This document shows positions 24,806 to 42,224 of a stretch of 64,000 nucleotides of DNA, in pieces. Under the pieces are notes generated by a model that did no database searches, was not told where the DNA came from, and worked only from the letters and a program-made list of their open reading frames with translations. How positions within the stretch are numbered: position 1 is the stretch's first letter; each line of letters opens with the position of its first letter. Origin of the DNA: Clostridia bacterium (lineage in GTDB: Bacteria > Bacillota > Clostridia > Christensenellales > RUG350). Both the position numbers and the translations under genes were made by a program. The stretch is from positions 1,692-65,691 of the forward strand of contig JAGBSX010000004.1 of the NCBI GenBank assembly GCA_017631635.1, read 5' to 3'.

Positions 24806-25501
24806 ATGTCAAATATAGATTATCAACCATATTATTACAAAAAACCTACTCCCAAATCCCCTCGCAAATCTAGAGGACAAATACTACTAGTGATGATAGT
24901 GATGATTGTATTTTGTCTAACGGTATTGTACGTCTACAAGCCTATAGACTCCCTCTATGAGTATCGTGAGTATTACGCTGTATATAGCGACGTGGTAGAA
25001 GATATATCTACAGCAAATTCGCTATCCTCTATGGTCAAGGCTAGGGGTGGAGCAGGATATGTATATAAATGTAGCGAGGGATATGCTATATTCACCTCGA
25101 TATACACCTCTCTAGACAATGCCCAACAAGTGGCAAATTCTCTATCTACTACCGACGCAAATGCTGGTGTTTACACTCTGCGCACTCGCCAAAATATATC
25201 TAGAGACGTACTAAATATACTCTCCTCTTCGCACGAGGCTTATCTCACCCTGTACGAAATGAGCAATCAGGCAGACTCTCACTCCTTACTAGAAGAACAG
25301 GCTCTCTCGCAGGTACTATCTATCATCAATAATTTTGAGAAAAGATACGGCGAATTGGGGGCGTTGTCTAGTGATGACCAAACTTATGTAATAGCCGTCA
25401 CAGACAACCAACTCGCCTATCTCAACGATTTGGCGAAAGATAGCGCCAAATCTAGCAAAATCAGGTATTGTTATAGTGCTATGATTTGTTCGCAACTCTA
25501 A
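24806..25501 (+). CDS. membrane-anchored hypothetical protein, possible SPOR-like domain
   Basis: 231 aa ORF with a hydrophobic helix near residues 27-44 and a YAVY...ARGGAGYV segment. The SPOR call is tentative. Confidence 0.6.
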   Translation: MSNIDYQPYYYKKPTPKSPRKSRGQILLVMIVMIVFCLTVLYVYKPIDSLYEYREYYAVYSDVVEDISTANSLSSMVKARGGAGYVYKCSEGYAIFTSIYTSLDNAQQVANSLSTTDANAGVYTLRTRQNISRDVLNILSSSHEAYLTLYEMSNQADSHSLLEEQALSQVLSIINNFEKRYGELGALSSDDQTYVIAVTDNQLAYLNDLAKDSAKSSKIRYCYSAMICSQL

Positions 25502-25749
25502 ATCTCGCCCACATCTTTTGCATCAGAGTTCTCGTCTACCTCTTTTGTAGCCGAATTCTCGTCAACATTTGCAGGCGTCTGACTACCGTCTGGGGCTGTC
25601 AGCACTCCTAGTAGCACTAGCACTCCTGATAGCGCCGTCACTACTTCATTGACGTAATCTGCATCTATCCTGATGCCCAACGTAGTGAGCAATATCACTA
25701 CTGCTCCACATAGCGACATCCAAAATGATACCGTCCTAAATTTATTCAT
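25498..25749 (-). CDS. holin-like small membrane protein
   Basis: 83 aa. N-terminal KFRTVSFW, two hydrophobic helices, GVLT motif and a charged tail. Confidence 0.6.
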   Translation of the reverse strand: MNKFRTVSFWMSLCGAVVILLTTLGIRIDADYVNEVVTALSGVLVLLGVLTAPDGSQTPANVDENSATKEVDENSDAKDVGEI

Positions 25750-25979
25750 ACTCCCTCCTTTTTGTCCGCGTTGAGATGAGAATCTAGCGAACCTTTTATC
25801 TCCTTGATATCTTCTTTAATCTCTTCGACGGCTTGTAGTGAGGAGGCAAGTCGAGATATCACTTCTTGGTATTTATTTTCTCTCTTGCGACTGTCTGTCA
25901 GTAGGTACACTAGCAGACTGACGAACAACAACGCCCATAGTCCGTTCGTCGCAGCCTCTTGTATCAAACTTTCCCACAT
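25746..25979 (-). CDS. BhlA/UviB-family holin-like protein
   Basis: NGLWALLFVSLLVYLL...RKRENKYQEVI pattern: one TM helix plus a coiled coil. Confidence 0.75.
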   Translation of the reverse strand: MWESLIQEAATNGLWALLFVSLLVYLLTDSRKRENKYQEVISRLASSLQAVEEIKEDIKEIKGSLDSHLNADKKEGV

Positions 25980-26005
25980 ATTAGCCTCCTATTGCTTGGT
26001 TTAGT

Positions 26006-26923
26006 TTACTTTTTCATCATCAGATAGTATCTGAGTCTATCGTAGTACAGTCCTAGGTATTGCTTGAGCGACTCGTCTCTCTCCAATTCCTCTAGGGCAG
26101 TAGCCTTGGGCAAATCGTCGTAATATGATAGCGCTACGGTGTATCTTCGCTCATAATTGTCCTTCTTGTAGCCACTATATCCGTGCTCTGCCTCATACGC
26201 CTCTTGCTCGGCTTTGAGTTGCTTTTGCTGTTCTTGAAATTTGGCTCTCTCTGCTTGGTAGGCACTCTCCTTCTTGTCTATCTCGTTGTTGTACTTGATT
26301 ATCTTGTCGTTGGTGTCTTTGAGTTGGGCTTTGAGTTTGTCTATGTGATTTTGCACCTCTTGGGCATAACGTATCTCATAGTTATCTAATGCCTTGTCCA
26401 ACTCCTCTTGGTAAGTGTCTATCTCTGCGTCGAGAGTCTCTTGCTTGATAGTCAATTTGTCTATCTCTGCCTGCACGTCCATATCCTTGAGTGTATCTAT
26501 CTCCTCAGATACGCTATCTGGTATGGAGGAGTTCGCCACTCCCTTGTCTACGGCGTTGAGTCTCGCTTCTTTCTTGTCCTCATCAGCATCTTCTTCGATA
26601 GCAGATATATGAGCGTCGCTATTTTTCTCATTGGCGATTTTCTCATCCTCTATCTTGGATATCTCCCTCTCTACGCTTGCCTTTTTGTCGGCTATCTTCT
26701 CATCTACCTCAGGTCTCAATTCTTCTTTGGCCTGAGATTCTATCTCTTCATCTGTCTTGGAGACTACCTCTAGTTTCGTTAGTCCTAGCGTCTCAGGCAT
26801 AGTGGGTACGGGATTTTCTCTGTCGTACTCATCTTGCAAAGATTGTAGTTGGTCGTACATATCTCGCTTGCTAGCCTTTTTGCTCTCGTTAAGGGTAGTC
26901 ACCTTTTGAATATCAATCTTCAT
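26006..26923 (-). CDS. acidic coiled-coil protein, possible virion or ejection protein
   Basis: 305 aa, rich in E/D/K/Q, heptad-like. RBS GGAGG. Lies within the phage-like operon. Confidence 0.6.
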   Translation of the reverse strand: MKIDIQKVTTLNESKKASKRDMYDQLQSLQDEYDRENPVPTMPETLGLTKLEVVSKTDEEIESQAKEELRPEVDEKIADKKASVEREISKIEDEKIANEKNSDAHISAIEEDADEDKKEARLNAVDKGVANSSIPDSVSEEIDTLKDMDVQAEIDKLTIKQETLDAEIDTYQEELDKALDNYEIRYAQEVQNHIDKLKAQLKDTNDKIIKYNNEIDKKESAYQAERAKFQEQQKQLKAEQEAYEAEHGYSGYKKDNYERRYTVALSYYDDLPKATALEELERDESLKQYLGLYYDRLRYYLMMKK

Positions 26924-26977
26924 ATCTGTATACCTCCGGTATTTGATTTAGATGCTTGATGCGTCTCTTGTACAAGT

Positions 26978-27088
26978 TTAGAGTGATTTCGTCCATATAC
27001 TCTTCATCTCCTCTACCTTTTTCTCTAGGTAATGTATACGCATCTGCATATCCTCTATATCTAGTCTTAATCTATTTAATTTATCCAT
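26978..27088 (-). CDS. 36-aa coiled-coil micro-ORF, overlapped by a second open frame (26913-27071)
   Basis: Manual translation MDKLNRLRLDIEDMQMRIHYLEKKVEEMKSIWTKSL. GAGG RBS overlaps the upstream stop. Confidence 0.4.
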   Translation of the reverse strand: MDKLNRLRLDIEDMQMRIHYLEKKVEEMKSIWTKSL

Positions 27089-27095
27089 AATTACC

Positions 27096-28577
27096 TCACG
27101 TGTAGTCTATCACTATGACGGGAGAGGTGATGCTCATCTCACTCTCATAGCACCTAAACTCTATACTCATCTTGTCAAAACGCCTATTGACAGGCACTTT
27201 GCGTGTGTATCCACCCTTGAGGTCGTAGCGATACCTATCGCCGTCTAGTGTGACGAACATCTTGGTATCACCCTTGGGAGTGAGAGTGATAGAACGCAAC
27301 AGTTTGCATTTGTCTGGATAACCGACGTCCGTCAATCCACTCACCCACTTCTTCTCTAGCCTAGTACCATACAGAGCGCCACTATCGTCTAGTTGGCAAT
27401 AATTCATATTCTCTATGCCGATAGGAGACCTATTGAACATATACAATTTCGCTCCGTTTCTCCCCTTGAAGCATAGCAAGTTGTCTACTTTTATACCTTT
27501 GACAATCTCCACTTCTTTGGTACGCATATCGTATAGAATAATGCTATTTACGTTAGGATTGTATCTGTCGTGTGGCTCTCCCTCCGAGAGTGGCTCGCCA
27601 TAGTCTAATAATGCCGTCACTACGTACTTGGAGTCGTAGTAGCAACCTTGTCCAAAACTAGCCTTTTTGGCTCGTAGCGAATCATAACTGTCCATCACTT
27701 TGTACGCATCTACTCCGTCAAATACGAATACTCCCTCCTCACTACAAAACATTATCTTGTCTGCACATACGGTGATAGTGTCGGGGTATATCATGCCAGA
27801 GGATACCAATATCCTGCGCATAGAAAATTCGGATTGGTTGCTGTATGCCGTGATTCTGTACACACCGTATTCGCAAAATACGTACACGTAGTCCAAAAAA
27901 CTCACCACTTTGTACGGTCTGCCACACGTGTGGTCTATATCTATATATCCACCTGCATCATAGGAGACTTCCCAGTTGTCAGGTTGCATAGGAGCGCTAA
28001 ACCATACTCTAGGACTCGTAGCACCCGATACTCCAAATATTCTCTCATAATGCTTGCATATAGAGACGACTCTGGGCGAATTCTCTACCAAAGTGAGATG
28101 AGTATCGTCTAGTATGTAAATACCCAAACTAGACGCTATGATTAGCACGTCTTTGTCGTCGTAATGGTAGTTGATAGCATCTCCAAAGGTGAGTACCGTA
28201 CTAGTATGCAGAGATGTTCCCTCTTGCACACTCCTATTGATATATACCTCTATGATACTCTCGTCGTCAGTCATGACTATCCTGTCGTCCCACTCTCCAG
28301 TCTTGTTGTCGTATCTGTGGTACTGCCATGTCTTGGTTGGGACTAAGCCATAACATCTGAGTTGATAAGTCTCGCCACTATTAGTCTGATAAGTAGCCTT
28401 GTCTATGCCGTAGGAGGAGACTATCGCTCCGTTTTTGACAGCGCAGTTGTACATGAGTTTGGCTGTGTCTAGCGACAATATATTCTCCTCCACGTCTGCT
28501 CTAGGTTGTCTAAACCTATCTAGCCTCATCCTCCTACGAGTAGGGCGTGGAGTACGTGTAGAACTATTGACTATCAT
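27096..28577 (-). CDS. putative tail nozzle / head-stabilisation protein (P22 gp10 / T7 gp12-like)
   Basis: 493 aa, beta-rich, with HYERIFG, RVWFS and VFCEYGVYRI segments. Follows the adaptor-like gene. Confidence 0.55.
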   Translation of the reverse strand: MIVNSSTRTPRPTRRRMRLDRFRQPRADVEENILSLDTAKLMYNCAVKNGAIVSSYGIDKATYQTNSGETYQLRCYGLVPTKTWQYHRYDNKTGEWDDRIVMTDDESIIEVYINRSVQEGTSLHTSTVLTFGDAINYHYDDKDVLIIASSLGIYILDDTHLTLVENSPRVVSICKHYERIFGVSGATSPRVWFSAPMQPDNWEVSYDAGGYIDIDHTCGRPYKVVSFLDYVYVFCEYGVYRITAYSNQSEFSMRRILVSSGMIYPDTITVCADKIMFCSEEGVFVFDGVDAYKVMDSYDSLRAKKASFGQGCYYDSKYVVTALLDYGEPLSEGEPHDRYNPNVNSIILYDMRTKEVEIVKGIKVDNLLCFKGRNGAKLYMFNRSPIGIENMNYCQLDDSGALYGTRLEKKWVSGLTDVGYPDKCKLLRSITLTPKGDTKMFVTLDGDRYRYDLKGGYTRKVPVNRRFDKMSIEFRCYESEMSITSPVIVIDYT

Positions 28578-29107
28578 GAGAACCTCCTAGCCTTGATAGT
28601 GGCTGATTCGTTCCTAGTAGCGCTGATAATACCGTCTGTAAACTTCTTGTCAAATTTCAAACTCTCCTCATAGCGCTGTCTAATCATAGCAAATTCGGAC
28701 GCTATACCATAGCCTAGTACTCTCTCAGTCAATCTAACTGGTAGGATGACCTCGTCCTCCAACTCGTATGCCTCTGGTATATACCTATAGTTGACTATCG
28801 CATTAGACAGTCTATTTACCTTGATATAATCGTGCATCACTCTATACTCCACGGGATTACCGTCTAGGGTGTATACGCATTTGATAGCATAGCATTTGCG
28901 TGGCAAACTTGATAGAGGTATCTTGTCGTCTACGACTGCCACCTTTTGCTCTGCTAGGTATGGTATAAACTGCTCGGCTATCTGCGAAAATATCGAATTG
29001 GCACTATGCACCAGTAGTCTAGTATCCGTGTGTGTATCGTCGTCTAGTATACTGTCGTCTATCTCTAGTAGTATGCAAGTGTCTTTTAGTATTTCTCTCA
29101 ACGTCAT
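28574..29107 (-). CDS. putative head-tail adaptor (tail tubular A-like)
   Basis: 177 aa, with YRYIP...LGYGIASEF segment. Position after capsid genes matches podovirus synteny. Confidence 0.5.
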   Translation of the reverse strand: MTLREILKDTCILLEIDDSILDDDTHTDTRLLVHSANSIFSQIAEQFIPYLAEQKVAVVDDKIPLSSLPRKCYAIKCVYTLDGNPVEYRVMHDYIKVNRLSNAIVNYRYIPEAYELEDEVILPVRLTERVLGYGIASEFAMIRQRYEESLKFDKKFTDGIISATRNESATIKARRFS

Positions 29108-29109
29108 AT

Positions 29110-29481
29110 CTATATCTCCTTGTATTGAGGCATCACTCTGGTACGGGTAGTATCGATATATTTGCCCAGTTGATTAGCCTTGTATCTCATCTCGTCAATT
29201 TGTTGACTCTCCATATCTCGAGTGATTTTTTCGTTTTGACAATCCATCTCTTGGATAAATTTCTCCACGTTGTCCACTCTAGTACGTAGCACTCTATCTA
29301 TCGCCCTACAATCTAGCGAATCATAAGGCAACACCACGCAAAGCGTAGGTTTTTGCCTTGCGTGGTGTATCTCATAACGGTGCTTGGTCAAATTGTACAC
29401 GGGATAATATCCATCGTCTATCTCTCTGAGCCTATCGGCCACGTCGTACACGTCGCCCCTAATATGCACCAGTCTATCCAT
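29110..29481 (-). CDS. hypothetical phage-like protein
   Basis: 123 aa ORF with RBS, in operon after the capsid gene. Confidence 0.65.
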   Translation of the reverse strand: MDRLVHIRGDVYDVADRLREIDDGYYPVYNLTKHRYEIHHARQKPTLCVVLPYDSLDCRAIDRVLRTRVDNVEKFIQEMDCQNEKITRDMESQQIDEMRYKANQLGKYIDTTRTRVMPQYKEI

Positions 29482-29483
29482 AA

Positions 29484-30656
29484 TTATTTGGTCAATCCTG
29501 TGATGACACCCATAGCGCCTGGTCTATCGCAGATAAGTTCGGCGTACTTGACCAAGGTAGCAGTAAAGACAGGTAGACCTGGCTTTTGTTGAAGTATCTT
29601 GCCATTTTCACTCTCTAGCCATCTCCAATCGCATAGTTGATGCATCTTGAAGTCCTCACTATTGATGAAGTACATAGAACCTCTATCTATGAATTTGCTT
29701 GCGACCAATGGTACTCCGTTGAAAGCCACGGACTTAAATCCACCGTCTAGTTCCATATAGTCGATATTTCGTCTATTGGTATCTAGCAACTTGATATACG
29801 TTCTACGCAATGCATAGGTAGTAGCGATATAGTCGACGGTCGAATTAAATCTCTCCTCTATACGGTCCTCGATATCTTGCAACAAAGATAGTGACATAGA
29901 AGAAGATTGACTGCACTCCGATACGTAAGGCTTGAGCCAATCGTTGCTATATCTCTCTATACCGTAGATATTTTCGTTAAACGCTACACCTTTGAGACCA
30001 GTGATCTCATTGTCCTTAGAGCCTTGCACGTATATAGATACGTTTTCGCCTGGTACTGCCTTGAGAGGATTGTCCAATACTACGTAATTCTCTGCCTCTA
30101 GCACCTCTTTGATACGCGCTGAGCCGATACTCTCTCCATTTTCCTCATACACCTCTATCACTAGACCTGGGTGCAAATACTTGCTGTCTTGGATAGGTAG
30201 ATAGTATGGTGAATTGAAATTTTGGTAATCTACATTACCTGTGGTAAGTAGACCGCTACCATTACCGTATAGCATACGTGATAGGTTGTATTTGCTAGCC
30301 TTGATGAGACCTTCCATCTCGTTGGTCAATAGGTTGATAAACGCACCTGCAGTATTCTCACTAGCACGTATAGCCTTGTCACTAATCTCAATAGTGCCGA
30401 ATATATTCTTGAGAGTAGTCTTGAACTGTGTGTATGCGTTGCTACTAGCCATAGGTAGAGCACCTGCCTCGCTACCACATCCTATACCACCGTTGATACC
30501 ATAAGGTACTAGTTTGACTAGTTCTTTGCCCCATACGTCTTGGGAAGTCTGCTCGATCTTGGTGAGAAGTGGATCTGTCTTTAAGTTAAGTTGTTCTGCG
30601 ACGACACCTAGATACAATGTCTTGAGTGCGTCTTCTGCTGTAGTTAATGTAATCAA
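29484..30656 (-). CDS. phage major capsid protein (HK97-fold type)
   Basis: 390 aa, TTG start with AAGGAG. GTIEISDKAI, LSRMLYGNGSG, FNGVPLVASKF and YAELIC..P segments typical of capsid proteins. Sits after portal and scaffold. Confidence 0.8.
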   Translation of the reverse strand: MITLTTAEDALKTLYLGVVAEQLNLKTDPLLTKIEQTSQDVWGKELVKLVPYGINGGIGCGSEAGALPMASSNAYTQFKTTLKNIFGTIEISDKAIRASENTAGAFINLLTNEMEGLIKASKYNLSRMLYGNGSGLLTTGNVDYQNFNSPYYLPIQDSKYLHPGLVIEVYEENGESIGSARIKEVLEAENYVVLDNPLKAVPGENVSIYVQGSKDNEITGLKGVAFNENIYGIERYSNDWLKPYVSECSQSSSMSLSLLQDIEDRIEERFNSTVDYIATTYALRRTYIKLLDTNRRNIDYMELDGGFKSVAFNGVPLVASKFIDRGSMYFINSEDFKMHQLCDWRWLESENGKILQQKPGLPVFTATLVKYAELICDRPGAMGVITGLTK

Positions 30657-30684
30657 TTTTTTGTTCTCCTTTTTTTTAGTTGGC

Positions 30685-31239
30685 TTATTTTAGCATCTTG
30701 TATGCCATAGCCGAAGCCTCACGAATAGTGCGAGGTTTTTTGGCAGGGGTCACGAATACTTCTCCGCCTCTAGCCATAATAGTAGGCGAATTCATATCAG
30801 CCAACGACTCTATATAATCGGCTATAATCTTTTGTCTAATTCTCTCGTTTGTGTAAACGTATCCGTCCAAAAAGTCGTCGTCTTGTACCATATCCTCAGG
30901 AGTCTTGTATTCTTGGGCAAGTATCTTGAGTAATGCCAAAGATAGACCTTCTTCGTTAGTGGCTAACGAAGGTTCGTCCAACAAGATTTTTCCTATCTTT
31001 CCTGCGTATCGGCGTGCGAGAGGATATATGGATATGAATTCGGCTATCTTATCCTGCCAATCCTCTCTCTGATATAGTGGCAAGGTCGTAGCATTATCCT
31101 CTACGACCTTGTTGTCACTCACGTTTTGTTCGTACTCTTTGAGTTGCTGACATTTTTTGGTAAACTCAGCCTCTAGTTTGAGGTACGCCTCGTATAATGC
31201 TTGTTCATCTTTAAATTTTCCGTATTTATTGTTGCTCAT
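30685..31239 (-). CDS. putative capsid scaffolding protein
   Basis: GKFKDEQALYEAYLKLEAEF resembles podovirus scaffold N-termini. Lies between portal and capsid. Confidence 0.6.
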   Translation of the reverse strand: MSNNKYGKFKDEQALYEAYLKLEAEFTKKCQQLKEYEQNVSDNKVVEDNATTLPLYQREDWQDKIAEFISIYPLARRYAGKIGKILLDEPSLATNEEGLSLALLKILAQEYKTPEDMVQDDDFLDGYVYTNERIRQKIIADYIESLADMNSPTIMARGGEVFVTPAKKPRTIREASAMAYKMLK

Positions 31240-33076
31240 TTTGTATCTCCTTAACTGAATTGATATCTTGGTAGGCTATATGTTCTCTGATGTGTCTATC
31301 TATAGCCTCGTTGTCTCTGTGTGATATTAGTGCTTTGGTGTGTTCTTCTACGTGTAGTTTGTGATCGTCAAATTCGTTGACCGTAGCACCGTCGCCACGT
31401 AGTAGCGACATATTTTCGCTGACTGCTACCTTGTGATGTACCTCTGTGACGTCGGTGGCTAAGTCTGGGAGCGAAAATCCTAGCGCCTCCACTAGTTTTG
31501 ACTTCGCTCTAGGTGTGAGATTGCCATTTTCGTCATGTAGTAGTCCCATCTTGTACATCTCAATGAGGGTATTTCTCCTACTTTCTGGACTATACAGAGC
31601 CTCTGCTCCAGTCTCAAATACTATATAATCCACGTCGATATCTGCCCTAGAGAAATAGAATACCTCTATATCGCCATTTTCTCCACTGTGTCTCTTGAGT
31701 CTAGTACCTCCTGCGAACTGCTTGTATAGGCGTAGGATTTGAGAAGACAACTCCTTCATAGCATTCCTGATGCTGTCTGCACTACCTATCATACGAGTAT
31801 CGTCCTGCTCTAGTAGGAGATTGATAGCCTTACCAGATGCGTTGAGAGTAGGTACGGATGAATACTGCATAGTCTCACTCACTCCGCTGATAGAGGTAAA
31901 CTCCTTGAGCAGTCTCTCCTCTTCGTACAAAAAGTCGTTTGGCAAACTGCCACCGTCTAGTAGTCTAGGAGGGGTGCTACCTTGTCGGTATATGAGAATC
32001 TTGCCTGGAGACAATCCCTCTTCCTCTAGATTGTCCGTATCTACGCTACCGTCCTCTACTGCTAGCACACCCATAGATATACGGTTGATAAATTCGTGCT
32101 TGCGATTTTTGATAGCGTTGAAAGCCCTCTGCACAGGGATACTTCTCTCTATGACGCTGACTCCAAAAAATGCTCCTGGTATCAGCACCGAAGTCTGCCG
32201 GACAAAAGGAAAAGTCCTCTCTCCTCCCACTCCGTTGATATATGGCAAGTCTCCGTCGTAGAGTATCTTGTCGGAGGCTACTATAGTCAATCTGCCTAGT
32301 GGTCTATCCTTAGTAGGGGCTGTGTATCTCTCTATGACGATAGCGTGATTTGACTTCTTGCTACTGCTCATCTTGGGGACGGTAGCAGTATAGCCTAGTC
32401 CACCTAGCACGTCGGAGTTGTCCATAGAGAATACGTCCACCTCTTCGGCAGTCACATCCTCACCCCATATATCTTTGATATATGCTATATCGTATGCCTT
32501 GGCGTGTATAATACTTCTACAGTCACTCACTTTGGCACAATTTAGCGAGTCGGGGTATATCTCATAAGGTGGACAAACGCTGATCTGCACGTCTCCCTCT
32601 TTGATACTCTTTTTGTTCTTGACACCTATCGTTCTACCTGTCGAATTGTCCCAGCCTACCTTATAAAAGACCGTACCACACACCTCGCTCCAAGCATTCG
32701 CCTCGGCGCGAAGCGCTTTGAGATTTTTCTCCTCGGAGACTGCCTTGAGTATCTTGGTGGATAGTCTGGCTGTGTTGATATCCTCATCATCATTTGACGA
32801 CGGTCTCACGCTGACTTCGGCATCTACTCTAGTGAGTTTGGCTATACGCGTCTCCATGATAGGCGCTATATGATTGTATACCTCTCTCTCTTGCCAAAAA
32901 TACTGCTTGCCCACGTCCTCTATCTCTCCTCTAGGAGATATCTCCGTGTATTGATTGCCTAGCAAAAAGTTCATATTTAGACGCCATTGTAATTCGTACG
33001 ACCTGCGTTCTTCTCGTCTTCTGTCAAAGTCTCTATGGACGTCTTGCAATAGTTCTTCATAAAACTGTTTCTTCAT
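31226..33076 (-). CDS. phage portal protein (P22-like)
   Basis: 616 aa, with FLLGNQY, YNHIAPI, PVQRAFN and SISGVSE...SGKAI..LLEQD segments. Follows the terminase genes. Confidence 0.8.
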   Translation of the reverse strand: MKKQFYEELLQDVHRDFDRRREERRSYELQWRLNMNFLLGNQYTEISPRGEIEDVGKQYFWQEREVYNHIAPIMETRIAKLTRVDAEVSVRPSSNDDEDINTARLSTKILKAVSEEKNLKALRAEANAWSEVCGTVFYKVGWDNSTGRTIGVKNKKSIKEGDVQISVCPPYEIYPDSLNCAKVSDCRSIIHAKAYDIAYIKDIWGEDVTAEEVDVFSMDNSDVLGGLGYTATVPKMSSSKKSNHAIVIERYTAPTKDRPLGRLTIVASDKILYDGDLPYINGVGGERTFPFVRQTSVLIPGAFFGVSVIERSIPVQRAFNAIKNRKHEFINRISMGVLAVEDGSVDTDNLEEEGLSPGKILIYRQGSTPPRLLDGGSLPNDFLYEEERLLKEFTSISGVSETMQYSSVPTLNASGKAINLLLEQDDTRMIGSADSIRNAMKELSSQILRLYKQFAGGTRLKRHSGENGDIEVFYFSRADIDVDYIVFETGAEALYSPESRRNTLIEMYKMGLLHDENGNLTPRAKSKLVEALGFSLPDLATDVTEVHHKVAVSENMSLLRGDGATVNEFDDHKLHVEEHTKALISHRDNEAIDRHIREHIAYQDINSVKEIQNEQQ

Positions 33077-33296
33077 CTTGCTTTTCCTCTTTTTTCTTCC
33101 TATTTTTGCTCAACATATTGTTGATGCCTTTGGGGACGATTAGTTTTCCTATACTCTCGTACATCTCTCCTAGACAATGCTCGCATATGTTTAGTTGAGT
33201 ACGAATATCCCCTCCCTTACTAAACGAATAGGTTGCCAAATTGTCGCAACCACCCATATCGCATCTTACTGTAGTATTTAGTTTTGTAGTTATCAT
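33057..33296 (-). CDS. small Cys-rich (putative Zn-finger) protein
   Basis: 79 aa with CDMGGC...CEHC. Coupled to neighbouring genes. Confidence 0.6.
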   Translation of the reverse strand: MITTKLNTTVRCDMGGCDNLATYSFSKGGDIRTQLNICEHCLGEMYESIGKLIVPKGINNMLSKNRKKKEEKQDEETVL

Positions 33297-33559
33297 AAAT
33301 CCTCCATTTCTTTTAATTCTTCTAGCAGTTTTTCTCTCTCTGCCACGAGTTCTTCTTCACTCATATCGTCGTATTCGCTACTCTCACCATCTATCCCCAT
33401 GATTACCTTGATAGAGGACAAATCGGGTGGCACGTGTTTGGTAGTCACACGCCTCTTTTTGAGAGAGACCTCTCCGTCTACCACGTCGTATTCTTCTACC
33501 ACCTCTTGGGTGTCGTAGCCTCTTGCTTTTTTGCGCAATATCTTGTCTATGTCTTCCAT
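33293..33559 (-). CDS. terminase small-subunit-like protein lacking the N-terminal HTH
   Basis: LRKKARGYDTQE...TTKHVPPD matches the C-terminal oligomerisation motif of a firmicute TerS family. Only 88 aa. Confidence 0.6.
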   Translation of the reverse strand: MEDIDKILRKKARGYDTQEVVEEYDVVDGEVSLKKRRVTTKHVPPDLSSIKVIMGIDGESSEYDDMSEEELVAEREKLLEELKEMEDL

Positions 33560-35022
33560 TTTTTACCTCCGTATCTGCGTACTTGCCTAATCAGTCGATT
33601 TTTGTCCTTGCCTATCACGGACAACTGCTCCTCTATCTTGGGTGGCTCGGGGCGTGAGGCTACGTAATACCTCAATTCGTCTAGCGCGTGGTCGTCTACC
33701 TTGACAGGTCTATCACCCTTGCCGTAGCGATAGGATTTGAGTTCTCTAATCATATTGACACACGACCTAAATATAAATATCTTGGGGGGATCGGTAAACA
33801 ATCCTCTCACTCTAGCGATACCACTCCACACATCCTTGTCTACGCGAGTATTCACCACGATACCTCTATCAAAGAACAAATTGGCTACAGACTTGGGGCT
33901 AGAGAGTGTAGTCTGCTCGGCAGCACTATCTATGAGCGCTGATATACGCCCCTCTTTGTCGGTGGGCCACTCTAGACTCCTCGCTATATCCTTGATAGCC
34001 TTGGCATGATAATCTATATCTCTACCTGCCTCGTAATGCTCGGCTATCACGTATATATTTGAGTCGTAGTCCACTGCATAAAAGTGGCAGGACAAAGGAT
34101 TGTTGAGACCGGGGTCTATAGAGATATTGTCATACCAGTCTTTGGGTACGTCAAAGGGGTCTATCACGTGTATGGCAGGATCAAATTCGGGATACACTAG
34201 TCCGTGCTCCGACCTAAATCTACCGTATCTCCTACTGTCTAGGTCTGCCTGCGACATAGACTTCGTCAACCTCTCCACATCCCTAGGATCTAGATAAGGA
34301 TTGTCTGCCCACTCCATAGAGATATACCATATATCTTCACTCTGGGACAGATATATCCTATCGTGTACCCAAGTCAATCCTTTGAGAGGCGTCATAGTGC
34401 AATATATATCTCCACTACGGTCTAGCACTCTCATCACACACTCGTCATAGATATCTTCTGGTGGCTCTTCGTCAAACCAAACGTAGTCGAGAGACGCTCC
34501 TTGAAATTTTTCTCTACCAGCCTCGCAACTCTTGAAACTAATGGTAGAGGTCGTACCGAATACGTTGCGTATAGTCACGTAGTCTATGATACCATTTTCG
34601 GGAGATGCCCTAGAGCCACTCACCATACCTATCGACACTATCCAAGATGGTGGGAGATATGAGAGTATTTTCTTCTGGGCGACGTCTCTCTGCACCTCAT
34701 AACTGAGTGAGACTACCCAGCCCGTCACACCTGCCTTGTTGGGTAGATAAGGATGTATACCTCTAGCCCTCCATATCGTTTCTACTGCGCCACACTCCGT
34801 CTTGCCACTACGATTTCCTCCAAAAACAAAACGGACCTTTTTGCCCGCTTTGTGAAATGCTATTTGTTTGTGGTGAACCTTGTCCTTGTTGTAGTTATTT
34901 AGTCTAAATTCTGCACGCCGTAGATACAGGTGCTTGTCTATTTGCTTGATTTTGTTGATGATAGTAGATGCGTCCTTGATGCTTTCGCTAGCATCTACTG
35001 TTTTTCGACTGTTTTTTTGCAT
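33547..35022 (-). CDS. terminase large subunit (P22-like)
   Basis: Walker A GGNRSGKT, Walker B VWFDEEP, coupling motif TMTP, nuclease acidic residues ISIDPG and DDHALDELRY. Confidence 0.92.
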   Translation of the reverse strand: MQKNSRKTVDASESIKDASTIINKIKQIDKHLYLRRAEFRLNNYNKDKVHHKQIAFHKAGKKVRFVFGGNRSGKTECGAVETIWRARGIHPYLPNKAGVTGWVVSLSYEVQRDVAQKKILSYLPPSWIVSIGMVSGSRASPENGIIDYVTIRNVFGTTSTISFKSCEAGREKFQGASLDYVWFDEEPPEDIYDECVMRVLDRSGDIYCTMTPLKGLTWVHDRIYLSQSEDIWYISMEWADNPYLDPRDVERLTKSMSQADLDSRRYGRFRSEHGLVYPEFDPAIHVIDPFDVPKDWYDNISIDPGLNNPLSCHFYAVDYDSNIYVIAEHYEAGRDIDYHAKAIKDIARSLEWPTDKEGRISALIDSAAEQTTLSSPKSVANLFFDRGIVVNTRVDKDVWSGIARVRGLFTDPPKIFIFRSCVNMIRELKSYRYGKGDRPVKVDDHALDELRYYVASRPEPPKIEEQLSVIGKDKNRLIRQVRRYGGKKWKT

Positions 35023-35100
35023 ACAATTTGTATTCCTCCTACCTTAGGTATGCTCTAATTCTTTGATTTTTTTCTAACTTCGTGATATAATGCTATAGAG

Positions 35101-35865
35101 GTGCGTATGAAAAAGTTAGCAATCATACTATTTTCTATAGCGATTATGATATCTAGTCTGTCCACCGTTGCTCTAGCAAACGGTAGTTCGCAGGCGTATT
35201 TTAAGGTGACTTATCCTAGCGCCGTACTGTACGTAGATAGTGAGTGTACCCAAGTATATTTTGGCATCACCGAGAACTGCTACGTAGAGATGCTCACTAA
35301 TGGCACGGAGACTTGTAGAGTCTCCTATATGGATATAGAGGGCTATATGGACAGGTCTCACCTATCCGCATCTCCTGCCGAATCTTGGGTGACTGATTAT
35401 CATCACCAAGAGAAGACTATCACTTCGTCAAGGAAGTCATTCCTCTACACCTCGATAGACCTAGAGGACAGTATCGCCGAGATATCCAAAAATGCTACTC
35501 TCACAGTCATAGGTATATATCCACTAGACACTACCCTACTATATTGTAGAGATTCTCTAGGCAACGTAGGATACGTAGAGAGTGGAGATACTAGTTGGTC
35601 TAGTAGTGACACACTACTACCTCCTATCAATTCCAACGGCTCGACCTCTGATGACAATGGTGGCTCTACACCACCACCGTCAAGCGACGTGTCAAACAAC
35701 GCCGACCCTCTACGCATAATACTCATACTAGGCATATGCATACCTGCAGGTATTATCGTATATCTATTGTTCAAACCTGTCACCAAGGTAGACAATAGAT
35801 ACATCAGCGACTCTCCCAAGAAGAGAGGATACTTCGAGGTAGAGGACTACGATTACGAAGAGTGA
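35101..35865 (+). CDS. secreted, membrane-anchored protein with putative SH3b-like repeats
   Basis: Signal peptide, two segments ending in GY[MV], a Ser/Pro/Gly linker, a C-terminal TM helix and an acidic tail. TGN-TATAAT promoter at about 35074-35082. Confidence 0.6.
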   Translation: MRMKKLAIILFSIAIMISSLSTVALANGSSQAYFKVTYPSAVLYVDSECTQVYFGITENCYVEMLTNGTETCRVSYMDIEGYMDRSHLSASPAESWVTDYHHQEKTITSSRKSFLYTSIDLEDSIAEISKNATLTVIGIYPLDTTLLYCRDSLGNVGYVESGDTSWSSSDTLLPPINSNGSTSDDNGGSTPPPSSDVSNNADPLRIILILGICIPAGIIVYLLFKPVTKVDNRYISDSPKKRGYFEVEDYDYEE

Positions 35866-36359
35866 TGATATCCACTCGTGACCAATCGTAGCATCTTTTG
35901 AAAGAGCGTCTCCTCTGCGTACTCCGTCTGGATACGCGTGGCGTCATACCCTACCGAATCAAAATATTTTTGAATAAGTTTGATAGCAGTAGCGTATCTC
36001 CTATAGTAGGTACGTATAGATATTTGCAATGATTTAGCGATGGTGTTTGAATCCATCGCTTTAAAATACTTCAATATCAATACTTTTGAATATATATGAG
36101 GTATATGTGCTAGCCCCTTGTCCACCAATACCTTCATATTGACGATACCTGCCAAACGGTGATTGAGTTGTATAGTAGTCGCTAATAACTTGTCCGTAGA
36201 TATGTGGTGCTTGACGTCATAATCAAACTTGACTCGTTCTCTGAGGTCCTCATTGAGCGCCCTATAATATTTGCCCAAATATCTGTAGCAATAAAGCAAC
36301 GTCTTAGTGTAAGTGTAGTCCAAAATAACGGACTCACTAGCCGTTTTGATAGATTTCAT
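35853..36359 (-). CDS. ArpU/RinA-like or sigma region-4-like HTH transcriptional regulator
   Basis: Start MKSIKT with AGGAGG RBS. C-terminal LILKYFKAMDSNTIAKSLQISIRTYYRRYATA is a region-4-type HTH. Confidence 0.65.
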   Translation of the reverse strand: MKSIKTASESVILDYTYTKTLLYCYRYLGKYYRALNEDLRERVKFDYDVKHHISTDKLLATTIQLNHRLAGIVNMKVLVDKGLAHIPHIYSKVLILKYFKAMDSNTIAKSLQISIRTYYRRYATAIKLIQKYFDSVGYDATRIQTEYAEETLFQKMLRLVTSGYHHSS

Positions 36360-36582
36360 ATTGTGCCTCCTGATTGTAGCGAATTCGCCATCGACCTTGG
36401 GGCTAAAGTCGTGGTACAACTTCGCCTGTATGATTTGATTATATACCCTGATTTTCGCTAAAGTCAAGATTGCGTGCCACAATCGACCAAACTAGTCATT
36501 ATAGTACCATTTTCGACACTTTTCGCTCGATTTATGGCAGACTTACTGCCACTTGTCAAGCCCCTTTCCACCCCCAAAAAGC

Positions 36583-36765
36583 AAAAAAAACACCACCCGT
36601 TAGGGTGTGTTCAATAGAGATTTTTCTCTTATTGGGAGTGGTACGGCACATAGCCGTGCCACTTCCTTTTTTCGTTCAAAAGACTTGCGGGATTGCGCCC
36701 ACTCCGTTGTAGAATATTTCTACTGCCTCTTTTCTTTTGCCATTCGCCTTTTTCGATTGGTGGTA
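36583..36765 (-). ncRNA. candidate structured small RNA or leader
   Basis: TTGACT-17-TATAAG promoter (36794-36766), four hairpins, then a terminator ACACACCC/GGGTGGTGT plus T8. No matching family recognised. Confidence 0.4.
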
Positions 36766-36862
36766 CTTATACAATATAATTTAAGTAAAGTCAACGCCGA
36801 CCTATCCAAAAATACGGACATGTCGGCGTTTTTGAAAAAAGTTTTTCAAATTGGTCAAATTA

Positions 36863-37279
36863 TTATAAATCTTCTTTTATATAATTATATGTACTAACAT
36901 CGATTTCTCCATTGTAAAACTTATCTATAAGCTTTCTATACAAAGATCTATTCGTCTCGTCTATAAGATAAAATAGAGTTAAAGAAGATTGTAATTTAAT
37001 CGCATCTATTTCTCCCATAATTATTGTGGGGCTATTTTCTTTTGTTTGCAACAATATATTACAACACTCTAAATACCGATTGTGTAGAAGTTTATTAGAA
37101 CAAAAAGTTTTTGCCTCCTCTACGTCAGCAATTCCATAAAAAACAGCCCTATCACTTTTCCCAAGAAATCGTAACTGCGGGAAAATATACCACATCCAAT
37201 GAGTTCTCTTTTTCTCATTGCGAAGTTCTTCTATAACATTTTTATAAACATTTTCTTGTGCTTTAATAAATCGTTCCAT
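36863..37279 (-). CDS. DUF1810-family protein
   Basis: MERFIKAQ...KRTHWMWYIFPQL and DAIKLQSSLTLF motifs. Confidence 0.85.
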   Translation of the reverse strand: MERFIKAQENVYKNVIEELRNEKKRTHWMWYIFPQLRFLGKSDRAVFYGIADVEEAKTFCSNKLLHNRYLECCNILLQTKENSPTIIMGEIDAIKLQSSLTLFYLIDETNRSLYRKLIDKFYNGEIDVSTYNYIKEDL

Positions 37280-37331
37280 CTTTAGCCATTTCTCTCCTTT
37301 GTTATTTTACTGATTCTTCGACGGGAGCGAT

Positions 37332-37685
37332 TTACTCCATAGGTTTAATCATTGATTCGATTAAGATGATTTCATCTTCGGTTAAAGCTTTATGCCAATC
37401 TTTACGCAATTCGTTAAGTTTCTTAAATCCTTGTATAATTAAAAAGTTTTCAGCATTTATAAATTGTTGCCTGTAATCATCTTCTGCCGGCATATTGTTT
37501 CTATTCGCAGTATTCCATAGAACTCTCTCTAAAAAATACTTGTTAGTCAAATCGAATATATGCCTTTTCATCTCTTCAAATCTATTGTAATAATAAAGTG
37601 TGCGAAGTTTATCAACATCATCTAACAAATCTTTTATTTCTTTAATATCCTTAAAAGTTTCCAATGTCGCTCTAAAGTCACTCAT
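37332..37685 (-). CDS. hypothetical protein
   Basis: 117 aa with AAGGAGG RBS. No recognised motif. Confidence 0.65.
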   Translation of the reverse strand: MSDFRATLETFKDIKEIKDLLDDVDKLRTLYYYNRFEEMKRHIFDLTNKYFLERVLWNTANRNNMPAEDDYRQQFINAENFLIIQGFKKLNELRKDWHKALTEDEIILIESMIKPME

Positions 37686-37911
37686 TTTTATTTTCCTCCT
37701 TTGTTTTTCTTGGATTATATAACAAAGTTGTTAAACTTAATCTTGACAAATCCTTAACAAAACTTAATTTTGCTTATTATATCATGAAAATTGCAATTTG
37801 TGTATCTACAAAACATCTACAATTGGACTACTTTCGGGATATTTTTACTATTTTTTAATAAAAAAATTAAATTATACTCGTCCTATTTTTCACTATAAAT
37901 GCTATCCCAAA

Positions 37912-40014
37912 TCAATTATCTTCCCCAACTGCAATCTGAAACCAACCAACTAAATCATATATCTCTATCAATTGTTTTGCATAATATCTAGCACGATTAG
38001 AACTAATGCACCCCTCAACATAATAAATCGTACCTTTTATTCCAATTGGTTCTGTAAGTAATGTTGAATTATCGGAAATTATAGGGTCTTTCAAACCTTC
38101 AATTTTTTTCGATGTAGATTTATGTACCGTGTTATTTTCAACTATTTCCACAAATTTCTCTCGATCGAAATCGTACAGAATTTCACAAACAATTGGTAAT
38201 ACGTCTTTCCATTTAGTAATTGGATATTCTTTATCGTCAAATCTAATCAAAGTGGGCTTTTCGCCTTCCATTGGTGTAACATCATCAGACATATCGTAAA
38301 CACCTGCTTCAAATTCAAATGTAGGTGCCTTGGTATCATAATCGCGAGTACGTTTTAACGGAGCAGTGATGGCTATGCAAATCCTGTTCGCAATTTCTTC
38401 ATTTCTATCCTTTATTTGTTCTTCTTTCCACTCACGATATTTATCGTTTTTTGCTATTTCATTTGTAATTACAAATTGAACGTCCGCAATATGTTTTAAT
38501 TTTACACCCCAAGCTTTATTTGAATTTTTAGAATTGTAACCTTGCGACATAGGAACTAAATTTCCTATACAATTCAAATACTTATTGCGCATATCTTTTG
38601 CGTTTTCTTCACCGCCATAATATTGAATCCACCAAGGGGAGAATGTTTGTGGCATAAGATGTTCCATTGTTACTTTGGTTATATCCACAGGAATATTGCA
38701 CCGTTCGTATTCTTCGGTCTTTACCAAAATAGCCCTTGCGTAATTAACATTAACACTTTCTTTTAGGTTTTGCTTAAATTCTTCATCGTCCGGGAATCTT
38801 CCTGCGGGAGAACTGCTATTTGATAACTCAAAATAGATATTATCATAACTACATTCTAAGCCGCCGTCAATCTTTCTTAATAATTGGTTGACGACAGTTC
38901 TCATTGCACCCCCACCACCTGAAACAGCACAAACTCTATACCTTGCCATATAATCAAACAATAAGTTCAATATTTTTTCAAGCTCTCTCGACTTGTTTAT
39001 ATACAGTTTATCAAACAAGCATAAATATAGTGGCATTAAATCGTCTGTTTTCAAAAGATTTAACATAATTATAAGCTTGTTTATCTTTTCATTTTCACAA
39101 TTTTCGAACTTGAAATAGGCAAAATATTTTGCATATCTACTCATTTCATCAAGAATTTCTATGTGGGTTATTTCTGGTTGATTTACATAATCATCTCTGA
39201 ATTTTTTATAAATCTTTTCCTGTTCAACATCTTCAAAGATTTTCATAACCAAAAAATCGCGAGCAAATCTTGAAATGTTTTCATTTGAAACAGTTCTTTC
39301 AATTTTTATCCAATAATTTTTATACAACAACTCTTGTTCTTCAATGGAATTGGAAAGCAACAAGCAGTTTCTTATCAAATCCGCAGGCGATAATCTTTTT
39401 CCTGTCGAATTGATTTTTTCAAAGACGGTTTGTACCGCTTCAAGATTATCTTCTATTTGCAAGTTTACATCAACAACTTCCAACTTCGTAATAGTATTAT
39501 AAATATCTTTAAGTGGAATCGACGATTCCCTTAACAACGAGATAAAATGAAAATAGTTTTTAATGATATTATTTTTCTTGTCGTTTTCTCTTACTAGACC
39601 TTTTACAACCATATTGAAACTATCGGCATCATACGACGTTTGTTTTAATCTAACTCTATATAAATCTCCGCCATTGTCGTTCTCTAAATATCTAATCGTG
39701 ATATTTTCGTCGGGAATATTTTGTCTTTTCATTTCATCACGAATTGCACACAATAAAAGTAGAATCGTTGTAACACGTTGTTGTCCGTCAACCAATATAA
39801 ATTCACTAAACGAAGCTCCATTATTTTTTCCTTCATAGTAAACTATATTACCAAGGTAATGCGTTTTTTTAGACTTATAGGAATTAATTATATCTTCAAA
39901 TAATTCATCGCATTGTTCGAACGACCATTCGTAATTACGTTGAAAGGGTGGAATAATAAATACTTTATCCAATCCACCTATAAACTTCAAAATGTTTGTT
40001 TCGCTTGCTTTCAT
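37912..40014 (-). CDS. GmrSD-type modification-dependent restriction protein (DUF262 + DUF1524 HNH) with extra C-terminal domain
   Basis: IPPFQRNYEW, VDGQQRVTT, FEKINSTGKRLS, and TMEHLMPQ...IGNLVP..NSKNSN. About 140 extra C-terminal residues. Confidence 0.88.
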   Translation of the reverse strand: MKASETNILKFIGGLDKVFIIPPFQRNYEWSFEQCDELFEDIINSYKSKKTHYLGNIVYYEGKNNGASFSEFILVDGQQRVTTILLLLCAIRDEMKRQNIPDENITIRYLENDNGGDLYRVRLKQTSYDADSFNMVVKGLVRENDKKNNIIKNYFHFISLLRESSIPLKDIYNTITKLEVVDVNLQIEDNLEAVQTVFEKINSTGKRLSPADLIRNCLLLSNSIEEQELLYKNYWIKIERTVSNENISRFARDFLVMKIFEDVEQEKIYKKFRDDYVNQPEITHIEILDEMSRYAKYFAYFKFENCENEKINKLIIMLNLLKTDDLMPLYLCLFDKLYINKSRELEKILNLLFDYMARYRVCAVSGGGGAMRTVVNQLLRKIDGGLECSYDNIYFELSNSSSPAGRFPDDEEFKQNLKESVNVNYARAILVKTEEYERCNIPVDITKVTMEHLMPQTFSPWWIQYYGGEENAKDMRNKYLNCIGNLVPMSQGYNSKNSNKAWGVKLKHIADVQFVITNEIAKNDKYREWKEEQIKDRNEEIANRICIAITAPLKRTRDYDTKAPTFEFEAGVYDMSDDVTPMEGEKPTLIRFDDKEYPITKWKDVLPIVCEILYDFDREKFVEIVENNTVHKSTSKKIEGLKDPIISDNSTLLTEPIGIKGTIYYVEGCISSNRARYYAKQLIEIYDLVGWFQIAVGEDN

Positions 40015-40076
40015 AAAATTTCTCCTTCGTTTTTTCTATTCTCTACACTAAATATGACAGTTTTGGTCATATTTAC

Positions 40077-40862: not shown

Positions 40863-40863
40863 T

Positions 40864-41721: not shown

Positions 41722-41771
41722 ATAATCTCCTCAATAAATCAATAGGGTTATGTTTCTATTTTGACACAATA

Positions 41772-41800
41772 ACAATAACACATATTAGAAGTAATGTCAA
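41772..41800 (-). promoter_or_regulatory. promoter of the kinase operon
   Basis: TTGACA (41800-41795), 17 nt spacer, TATTGT with TG extension. Confidence 0.55.
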
Positions 41801-41814
41801 GCAATTATGGTGTC

Positions 41815-41848
41815 TGTATCAATAGAATTATAAATTTATTTTGATACA
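41815..41848. promoter_or_regulatory. res-site-like inverted repeat
   Basis: TGTATCAA-N18-TTGATACA with TTATAA near the centre. Confidence 0.4.
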
Positions 41849-42059
41849 TTTTGTTATTTTTAGCTTAAAAGATATTTGTGCATAGAAAAAGAACTTAGAT
41901 TTTACGTCTAAGTTCTAACTTTCTCTGATTCACCCAAAATATTGTATTCCTATGATGATTTTTATTTGTCTTTCAAAATCCCTATAAAATACACCGAGCC
42001 AAAAGTGGTTTTTATCAGCAGTTCATCAGGTTCGTATTCTCTCGATTCATTTCTATATC

Positions 42060-42091
42060 AAAATATCCCCTCTACTGCGAGGGGATATTTT
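42060..42091 (-). terminator. terminator downstream of tRNA-Thr
   Basis: Stem AAAATATCCCC/GGGGATATTTT. Confidence 0.8.
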
Positions 42092-42095
42092 GATA

Positions 42096-42171: not shown

Positions 42172-42224
42172 ATTTACTATATTTTACTTTTGTTTAGATA
42201 TACTTTCTTCTCTTCGCTATATTC

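Follow-up and report, generated by a model that had tools for sequence, protein, structure and literature searches.

The 64,000-nucleotide stretch of DNA from a gut-dwelling, uncultured Clostridia bacterium analyzed here (assembly GCA_017631635.1, contig JAGBSX010000004.1, positions 1,692 to 65,691; hereafter the window) carries, on its minus strand between positions 25498 and 35022, a compact operon of phage-type packaging and virion genes. Judged from the genes alone, this operon and two genes next to it rather likely constitute a domesticated podovirus head, packaging and tail-hub module that forms particles with host DNA in the manner of a gene transfer agent (GTA), and we hold the domestication by itself to be very probable. 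A first-pass annotation, made from the letters of the window, had described a candidate new GTA-like system that is long resident in a clostridial lineage. The description as a long-resident, domesticated clostridial virion module is upheld by the match of its GC content to that of its flanks, by purifying selection, by co-divergence with the host, by the remoteness of the nearest phages and by intact co-linearity. The novelty holds for the family, which is apparently undescribed, and not for the kind, which is less new than first thought because FpGTA, a podovirus-like GTA whose genes follow the same order, appeared in print in January 2026.

Residence in the host chromosome

Searches with the window proteins (tblastn) and all-against-all clustering of open reading frames (ORFs) gave 14 gene families in one order across the 81 related genome loci examined, and all per-gene presence counts below are out of these 81. 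Read in the direction of the module, the order is SIG (a sigma-region-4 protein), the SH3b membrane-protein gene on the opposite strand, TerL, the TerS-like g2, g3, portal, scaffold-like gene, capsid, g7, adaptor and nozzle, followed by zero to three variable genes, DUF7934, holin A and holin B. The unit is larger than first described, as SIG (35853-36302) and the divergent SH3b gene (35101-35865) travel along in other genomes; the full unit is 14 genes and about 11 kb long (window 25498-36302).

The GC content of the module follows that of its flanks almost one to one (r = 0.96, slope 0.99, range 0.25-0.62, 55 loci). Loci with more divergent portals also tend to have more divergent adjacent housekeeping proteins (Spearman 0.5-0.8), and portal identity between loci is as high as or higher than theirs, so that the portal diverges no faster than its neighbors. 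The ratio of nonsynonymous to synonymous substitution rates (dN/dS), which had been proposed as a check, indicates purifying selection on all 14 families, with medians of 0.04-0.31 (Nei-Gojobori, 20 species pairs) that are approximate figures, many dS values being near saturation. Together, GC tracking, purifying selection and co-divergence therefore describe a long-resident, selectively maintained element and no recent or decaying prophage.

The host-like composition that the first-pass annotation had set against a nearby AT-rich island is borne out, with CTAG frequency, dinucleotide signature and codon usage of the module all matching the host:

Module: CTAG 8.0 per kb; dinucleotide distance to host 51; relative synonymous codon usage (RSCU) correlation with host 0.91
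Host DNA: CTAG 11 per kb; dinucleotide distance of its own 9.5-kb chunks 40 ± 15
AT-rich island: CTAG 0.37 per kb; dinucleotide distance to host 234; RSCU correlation with host 0.19

The distance between module and host falls inside the host's own range. Host DNA (e.g., 1-22000 and 42600-64000) holds CTAG at approximately 11 per kb, about 3 times the random expectation, with a TA relative abundance of 1.25; this richness runs counter to the avoidance of CTAG that is common among bacteria, and the module has the same signature.

No direct repeat of the att-like type brackets the module in the window, as the first-pass annotation had stated. Its claim that integrase, repressor and replication genes are absent holds for the annotated 35.1-58 kb (scanning did not extend to the left 22 kb or to 58-64 kb), where the genes scanned between 42.5 and 58 kb are housekeeping genes (NAPRTase, galK, rlmL, gltX, murG, feoB). 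Likewise, no integrase, excisionase, primase/replicase or AlpA-type regulator was found in the annotated window parts or in the flanks read of related loci. A functional or recent prophage was rejected on these grounds, given that the parts read hold no integrase, att, repressor or replication genes, the composition is not foreign, and there is no patchy presence at variable sites.

The position of the module is kept within sub-clades only. A conserved neighborhood of groEL and dCMP deaminase, which had been suggested for follow-up, does not exist: groEL, groES and dCMP deaminase adjoin the module in none of the 81 loci. Elsewhere the flanks, by sequence reading, are gyrA/gyrB-, ileS-, rRNA methyltransferase-, rluA-, murG-, murC-, RNase J- and thyA/folA-like, and a given set of housekeeping flanks recurs only within a sub-clade. 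Patchy presence at variable loci, which had been named as an observation that would speak against long residence, is not the pattern seen, since the module is co-linear in the 81 loci and has housekeeping flanks. The description of the operon as wedged between host-type genes is correct in so far as such flanks occur elsewhere; on the SH3 side it fails, the SH3b gene being a conserved part of the unit.

The reading as a cryptic prophage in decay, without a present function, is close to untenable. Remnants of this kind are common in bacterial genomes, and lysogeny, replication, fiber and lysin genes were not found. Decay does not fit ORFs that are all intact here and in the related species examined, a dN/dS well below 1 for every gene, conserved TerL catalytic motifs, or a co-linearity kept across hosts that differ by 37 GC points; intact ORFs, GC tracking and dN/dS effectively refute it.

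Genes of the unit

The features of the unit are as follows, in the order of the module:

36438..36467, minus strand: sigma-70-type promoter-like site upstream of SIG, TTGACT-18-TATAAT, matching 11 of 12 consensus positions
35853..36302, minus strand: SIG, sigma-region-4 / phage late-regulator-like protein, from family profile and position
35101..35865, plus strand: SH3b membrane protein with signal peptide, two SH3b-like repeats, C-terminal transmembrane (TM) helix and short tail
35063..35091, plus strand: sigma-70-type promoter-like site of the SH3b gene, TTGATT-17-TGnTATAAT
33547..35022, minus strand: TerL, ATPase and RNaseH-like nuclease (phrog_2 E 2e-28, PF03237, PF17289)
33293..33559, minus strand: g2, truncated TerS-like protein, 88 amino acids (aa) (family match to phrog_309)
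33057..33296, minus strand: g3, small Cys4 zinc-ribbon protein, 79 aa (conserved Cys)
31226..33076, minus strand: portal of P22/SU10 type (PF16510 P22_portal E 6e-20, PF23899 SU10_portal, phrog_156 E 8e-40)
30685..31239, minus strand: scaffold-like protein, 184 aa, so named from position
29484..30656, minus strand: major capsid protein, podovirus HK97-type (NF033394 capsid_maj_Podo 232 bits, phrog_14242 E 6e-42)
29110..29481, minus strand: g7, conserved protein of 123 aa, at this slot in 56 of 81 loci, without family match
28574..29107, minus strand: head-to-tail adaptor (phrog_2377 head-tail adaptor Ad1 E 1.7e-6)
27096..28577, minus strand: tail nozzle / hub of the P22 gp10, T7 gp12 and SU10 class, 493 aa (Foldseek, phrog_3287)
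26978..27088, minus strand: coiled-coil ORF of 36 aa, an uncertain gene, in the gap between nozzle and DUF7934, the sole sizeable gap of the module
26006..26923, minus strand: DUF7934 coiled-coil, Glu/Lys-rich protein (PF25588 E 9e-43)
25746..25979, minus strand: BhlA-family holin-like protein (PF10960 E 2.7e-18, phrog_2429 E 2.5e-14)
25498..25749, minus strand: two-TM holin (phrog_297 holin E 1.7e-7)

Between 25498 and 35022 the minus strand holds 12 co-directional ORFs of at least 77 aa, abutting or overlapping, and with the 36-aa ORF they account for the roughly 13 co-directional, mostly overlapping ORFs of the first-pass annotation, whose coordinates were right. Equally exact were the 4-bp convergent overlap at one end (25498-25501) and the 78-bp divergent gap at the other (35023-35100), and the naming of TerL, portal, capsid, adaptor, nozzle, coiled-coil protein and holins is supported by family scans or structural matches.

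TerL retains the motifs that had been read in it, namely Walker A (G68-T75), Walker B (D184/E185), T209-M210-T211 and the acidic residues D303, D365 and D443/D444, each of these residues being conserved in at least 95% of 56 homologues. Its identity across loci is 55-66%, with a median dN/dS of 0.04. The g2 family matches the phrog_309 TerS profile in 20 of 22 members, at profile positions of approximately 192-243 out of 319 alone. A full TerS of 249 aa, from a phage-like contig (L128), spans phrog_309 positions 127-285 including DNA-binding-type matches, and g2 aligns weakly to its residues 152-204. From these alignments g2 (median dN/dS 0.11) is a predicted TerS remnant without the DNA-recognition part; a PDB profile search with it gave chance-level matches alone. 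In g3, present in 44 loci with a median dN/dS of 0.31, three of the four Cys do not vary across 15 homologues and at least 90% of these keep the fourth, and neither family scans nor the PDB profile search gave a match above chance.

Two sub-clade variants touch this end of the operon. In one sub-clade (L034, L035, L043; also L032 and L040) the region upstream of the g2 homologue lacks TerL, SIG and the SH3b gene, the genes in their place being HhH-GPD glycosylase-like, NfeD-like and flotillin-like by sequence reading, and the series from g2 to the holins is intact; TerL may have moved elsewhere in the genome (a split locus) or been lost. In another set of loci (L054, L061, L063, L068; also L038 and L060) the TerL and TerS-like genes are separated by an inserted gene for a repeat-rich protein of 695-1120 aa, which begins with a signal sequence and is anchored in the membrane at its C terminus.

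Among the head genes, the portal has a median dN/dS of 0.05 and the capsid of 0.10; the scaffold-like gene lies between the two in 70 loci (0.26), and g7 (0.19) is probably a head or connector accessory. The adaptor is found in 61 loci (median dN/dS 0.12). The nozzle (0.14) was modeled with AlphaFold2 from a shallow alignment of 7 sequences, with a predicted local distance difference test score of 64, and the top 20 PDB matches of this model in Foldseek are all podovirus nozzle or tail-hub proteins, including the Pa223 tail 9nwi_Y (E 5e-16, template modeling score 0.58), GP4, SU10 7z4f_G, P22 gp10 8eap_D (E 3e-10), VP1 and T7 gp12. The sequence profile of the nozzle also matches SU10 7z47_G at E 0.003. 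From these podovirus nozzle matches of the 493-aa protein it follows that the predicted particle has a portal-adaptor-nozzle axis.

DUF7934 (55 loci, median dN/dS 0.12) and the holins (0.16-0.18) complete the operon, and a homologue of the two-TM holin in locus L021 matches phrog_297 at E 4e-10. The slot between nozzle and DUF7934 is occupied in related loci by a variable cassette of zero to three genes (e.g., L001:16173-18027, L045:15731-18706 and L052:16255-17379), with sizes of about 370 aa, or about 320, 600 and 80 aa together, or about 125 aa. PHROG scans gave no usable match for the cassette genes; from their position they are likely, as candidates, to be fibers or receptor-binding proteins.

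In 35 loci SIG shares the strand of TerL and lies some 1 kb upstream of it; its median dN/dS is 0.23. The profile of the SIG family matches PDB entries for sigma region-4 domains (SigF 8jzt at E 6.5e-8, SigW, FliA), the phrog_36 transcriptional regulator (E 1e-7) and the phrog_1740 sigma factor, and weakly PF08281. The listed ORF reaches back to a TTG at 36482; the family alignment sets the start at Met61, near 36302, and the TTG start is probably spurious. The site upstream of SIG is a putative promoter by its consensus. In 53 loci the SH3b gene separates SIG from TerL, in the opposite orientation, also with a median dN/dS of 0.23. PF08239 SH3_3 is matched by 7 of 22 members of its family (best 2e-10), and cell-wall hydrolases are matched by the family profile in their SH3b regions (4krt, E 5e-4). 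The paired motif of its promoter-like site, ATTATAyAC ... AAAAATAAAG (module strand), recurs in the intergenic region between TerL and the SH3 gene of many loci. The earlier statement that no phage life-cycle genes are present is thus not quite right, because the phage-type sigma-like regulator and the SH3 gene belong to the unit; it stands for integration, lysogeny and replication, for which no genes were found in the parts read.

Two sub-clades, one comprising L039, L055, L058, L059, L064, L079 and L080 and a second comprising L001, L052, L066 and L070, encode a large membrane-anchored protein of 580-950 aa directly upstream of SIG on the opposite strand. The C-terminal TM helix and basic tail of these proteins resemble those of the SH3b protein, of which they may be paralogous partners.

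Predicted function and competing explanations

GTAs and other viriforms are recognized by resident, vertically inherited structural genes without autonomy genes and under purifying selection, and further by the packaging of random host DNA, a capacity below their own coding DNA and delivery to recipients (PMC9662315). The module shows vertical residence, purifying selection and, in the parts read, no replication, integration or lysogeny genes. Within it, TerL, the TerS remnant and the portal are the most constrained proteins (dN/dS 0.04-0.11), and this strongest constraint therefore indicates selection on DNA packaging.

This bears on the idea of a capsid repurposed without DNA transfer, as a protein or cell-wall nanostructure or for a role in differentiation under its own sigma-like factor. 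The dedicated sigma-region-4 regulator and the conserved cell-wall-binding membrane protein would suit such a structure, and several conserved proteins (g3, g7, DUF7934) have no assigned function; against it, the best conserved proteins are the portal and a TerL with ATPase and nuclease motifs, whose sole known role is DNA packaging, and we regard the idea as scarcely probable.

A suicide particle or lysis device of PBSX-like or tailocin-like character, serving the killing of competitors, release of DNA or nutrients, or biofilm matrix and not gene delivery, deserves more weight and is nevertheless unlikely. Particles would be produced on this account and might even contain host DNA. The PHROG family of the BhlA-type holin-like gene near the end of the operon is annotated as bacteriocin production or immunity, no fiber or receptor-binding gene was found in the window copy, and the conserved SH3b membrane protein could conceivably act in immunity or self-recognition. 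For FpGTA, too, the authors leave the option of a killer particle open (PMC12946183). The selection on packaging described above speaks against this account, as do the conserved adaptor and nozzle, which form the DNA exit channel, and the lack of sheath, tube or baseplate genes such as PBSX and R-tailocins have. A PBSX-type myovirus particle in particular was rejected: the family scans of the module gave no sheath, tube or baseplate gene, and TIGR01547, the PBSX-family TerL model, scores module TerL at 19.9 bits, far under its cutoff of 105.

It is also conceivable that the module is one half of an autonomous element, either a split prophage with its replication and lysogeny genes at another place or a capsid-forming satellite that packages mainly its own DNA and borrows the parts it lacks. 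Capsid-forming phage-inducible chromosomal islands (cf-PICIs) bring along TerL, TerS, portal, capsid and connector genes of their own, and their capsids are small. A helper could supply the fibers and lysin that were not found in the annotated parts, and 63 contigs with this portal are classed as viral in IMG/VR. We nonetheless find this highly improbable. No integrase, excisionase, primase/replicase or att repeat occurs in the window parts scanned or in the recurrent flanks read, the same housekeeping neighbors recur within sub-clades, GC is ameliorated over a 37-point range, and a TerS-like protein without its DNA-recognition part does not favor packaging of own DNA. Moreover, most of the 63 IMG/VR contigs (L082-L144) are short fragments, of 4-16 kb, that hold the module alone; most of them are probably misclassified as viruses, and as fragments of a chromosomal module they should not count as phages. 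Identity as a cf-PICI was accordingly set aside, with no integrase, AlpA-type regulator or primase/replicase in the window parts or related flanks read.

Several observations weigh against the module as a domesticated, DNA-packaging GTA. TerL is missing from the locus in L034, L035 and L043, so the module is not invariant. The TerS-like call stands for the family and falters for the window copy, as g2 itself is not below E 0.01 against TerS families, though its homologues are; the scaffold call is likewise right as to the slot between portal and capsid and rests on position, the protein having no match in family scans. The k-mer search upstream of TerL returned the SH3b promoter-like site alone and no promoter of the TerL operon or SIG-binding motif. 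No endolysin was found in the window's module or in the annotated window parts, with the coverage given above, and the same applies to a fiber or receptor-binding gene in the window copy and annotated parts; no tailspike or needle gene was identified in the module. The near-saturation of many dS values, already mentioned, also belongs here.

For a GTA-like module the following course of events would seem reasonable. The ancestor of a large Christensenellales-type group of Clostridia would have acquired the module from an SU10/P22-like phage, with chromosomal inheritance since then and its function kept. In some cells SIG, expressed from a housekeeping-type promoter and presumably restrained post-transcriptionally or by dosage, would turn on the operon from TerL to the holins. 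Portal, scaffold-like protein and capsid protein would assemble procapsids, which TerL and a non-specific TerS remnant would fill by headful with roughly random host DNA; we propose no pac-site specificity because the TerS-like protein is without a DNA-binding part. Adaptor and nozzle would then close the portal and form a stubby tail, the DUF7934 protein would be a further virion component, and lysis by the two holin-type proteins, together with a lysin from another locus, would release the particles.

Relation to known elements, carriers and neighboring DNA

GTAs are well documented mainly in Alphaproteobacteria. The TerS of RcGTA, like g2 by prediction, is without DNA-recognition ability, and RcGTA is controlled by the host regulators CtrA and GafA, whereas the module carries a phage-type sigma-like regulator of its own. 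RcGTA and the module have in common a vertically inherited head and packaging cluster under purifying selection, a host-like composition, a large distance from extant phages, and fiber and lysis functions that in RcGTA are encoded apart from the main cluster. They differ in that RcGTA has a siphovirus-like ancestor and a long tail and belongs to another phylum, while the module is podovirus-derived, and there is no sequence relationship between them past shared folds. The RcGTA-type GTAs of Alphaproteobacteria are classed as viriforms (PMC9662315, PMC5721377). PBSX of Bacillus subtilis, a phage-derived element fixed in the chromosome, whose particles contain host DNA and leave the cell by lysis (PMC12946183), is like the module in being Gram-positive, chromosomally fixed and phage-derived, and unlike it in being myovirus-like with a contractile tail.

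The closest comparison is FpGTA of Faecalibacterium prausnitzii (Nat Commun, January 2026), a podovirus-like GTA and the first in a gut commensal (PMC12946183). FpGTA I is a chromosomal 10.5-kb operon whose 40-nm capsids carry host fragments of 8.4-8.9 kb; portal, capsid and a coiled-coil protein named 'TolA' (RCH50844.1, the third most abundant particle protein) are the dominant proteins of its virions, and its TerS is reported to be without a DNA-binding domain (PMC12946183). Both systems are chromosomal operons of gut Clostridia on the 10-kb scale, podovirus-like and without lysogeny or replication genes, and the gene order is alike, running through TerS/TerL, portal, scaffold position, capsid, small proteins, nozzle and a terminal coiled-coil protein. 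The FpGTA nozzle was annotated via PDB 8eap, which is also a top structural match of the module nozzle, and the DUF7934 protein occupies the slot of 'TolA', a likeness of position.

There are also clear differences. The TerS-like gene of the module follows TerL, unlike in FpGTA, and the module adds a zinc-ribbon gene, the sigma-like regulator and the SH3b membrane gene to the unit. The FpGTA capsid is named 'N4-gp56 family', whereas the module capsid matches NF033394 only; FpGTA has a Prp-like gene between portal and capsid, of which the family scans of the module gave no match; and the second FpGTA operon (fibers, receptor-binding protein, holin, endolysin) has no counterpart in the annotated window parts, the holins of the module being in the main operon. 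None of the 96 matches of a high-GC DNA pattern for the TerL Walker-A segment of the family carries a Faecalibacterium or Gemmiger label, and the name Faecalibacterium is absent from all 20 portal clusters looked up, which were picked for high-GC composition or large size. Set apart by names, labels and gene content, the module is probably not of one family with FpGTA I (RCH50844-RCH50852), and, compared by description, the window family appears to be distinct from FpGTA at the sequence level and undescribed. We therefore place the module as probably a new member, and probably a new family, of the podovirus-like GTAs in gut Clostridia.

Packaging of GTA-like character has been seen in metagenome-assembled genomes (MAGs) of Christensenellaceae, with 4.1 and 7.1 kb for HGM11616 and 6.3 kb for QANA01, and no gene cluster was assigned to it (PMC12946183). 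Full-text literature searches gave no other papers linking Christensenellales to GTAs. Tentatively, and with somewhat less than even confidence, we suggest that the module is the gene cluster behind this 4-7 kb host-fragment packaging in gut Christensenellaceae, representing an order-wide, vertically inherited SU10/P22-like domestication separate from FpGTA, with its own sigma-like switch and a cell-wall-binding partner. If so, it could be among the most widespread GTA families in gut Bacillota. Beside FpGTA, the window points to a second, apparently separate GTA-like family of much wider distribution. If active, it would mean lineage-wide gene exchange or programmed lysis in a large group of gut Clostridia, and would supply the genetics for capsid-packaged Christensenellaceae DNA in fecal viromes. 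It offers a defined 14-gene unit, a candidate regulator and two cultured carriers, Anaerocaecibacter muris and Maliibacterium massiliense.

With respect to phages, the best match of the capsid in 50,697 deposited phage genomes has 27% identity and lies in actinobacterial podophages. The features of a P22/SU10-like ancestry are all present (portal type, HK97-type podovirus capsid, adaptor, beta-propeller nozzle), and the module agrees with SU10/P22-type podoviruses in its portal families (PF16510 and PF23899), in how adaptor and nozzle are arranged and in the fold of the nozzle. Its structural genes come in an order also found in the IMG/VR contigs L122, L127/L128 and L130, which by their gene content are putative phage genomes; these are 35-65 kb long, with 40-42% portal and 33-38% capsid identity to the module, and the L128 capsid also belongs to phrog_14242 (E 2e-84). 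Unlike the module, L128 has a TerL of phrog_3717 and the full-length TerS of 249 aa. Its gene in the scaffold slot, at 395 aa, is twice as long as that of the module, the one in the nozzle slot encodes 585 aa, and numerous small genes lie upstream and at least 4 additional ones downstream. Searches of these contigs by tblastn with the window proteins gave no match to SIG, SH3b, DUF7934 or the holins.

Carriers are numerous. Portal relatives amount to 4738 proteins at E<=1e-10 in a 90%-clustered protein collection and to 886 representatives at E<=1e-30 in a 50%-clustered library, and in GTDB contigs with one genome per species at least 595 species-level genomes encode one. Among the matches listed, nearly all carriers are labeled Christensenellales, Christensenellaceae or Clostridia, on contigs of up to 537 kb. 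More carriers emerged from two other scans with DNA patterns, among them a closed 1.8-Mb Christensenellaceae MAG and the cultured A. muris, and the family portal is present in M. massiliense, a cultured isolate. The GroEL of the window host is 85% identical to that of uncultured Clostridia MAGs and 76% identical to that of A. muris, the sole named species in the top matches. One portal cluster at 90% identity (P0064), 52% identical to the window portal, has 1773 members on contigs of up to 1.47 Mb, and therefore at least one very abundant organism carries the module. The motifs KNRKHEF and YFWQERE were rejected as family-wide portal anchors, being absent from 80 and 88, respectively, of 94 full-length representatives; they are held in the Christensenellales-type clade only.

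The AT-rich island next to the unit (window 36600-42400) has a GC content of 0.32 and a codon usage unrelated to the host. Its genes at 36.9-41.7 kb are of defense type and include those for DUF1810 (36863-37279), a GmrSD-type restriction enzyme (37912-40014) and a HipA-like kinase (40864-41721). The island ends at a tRNA-Thr (42096-42171), with partial repeats of the tRNA end at 42135-42151 / 42225-42241 and 42158-42186 / 42350-42378, and has the appearance of a defense island that inserted at a tRNA. Between it and the SIG gene stands a strong hairpin terminator (36634-36666).

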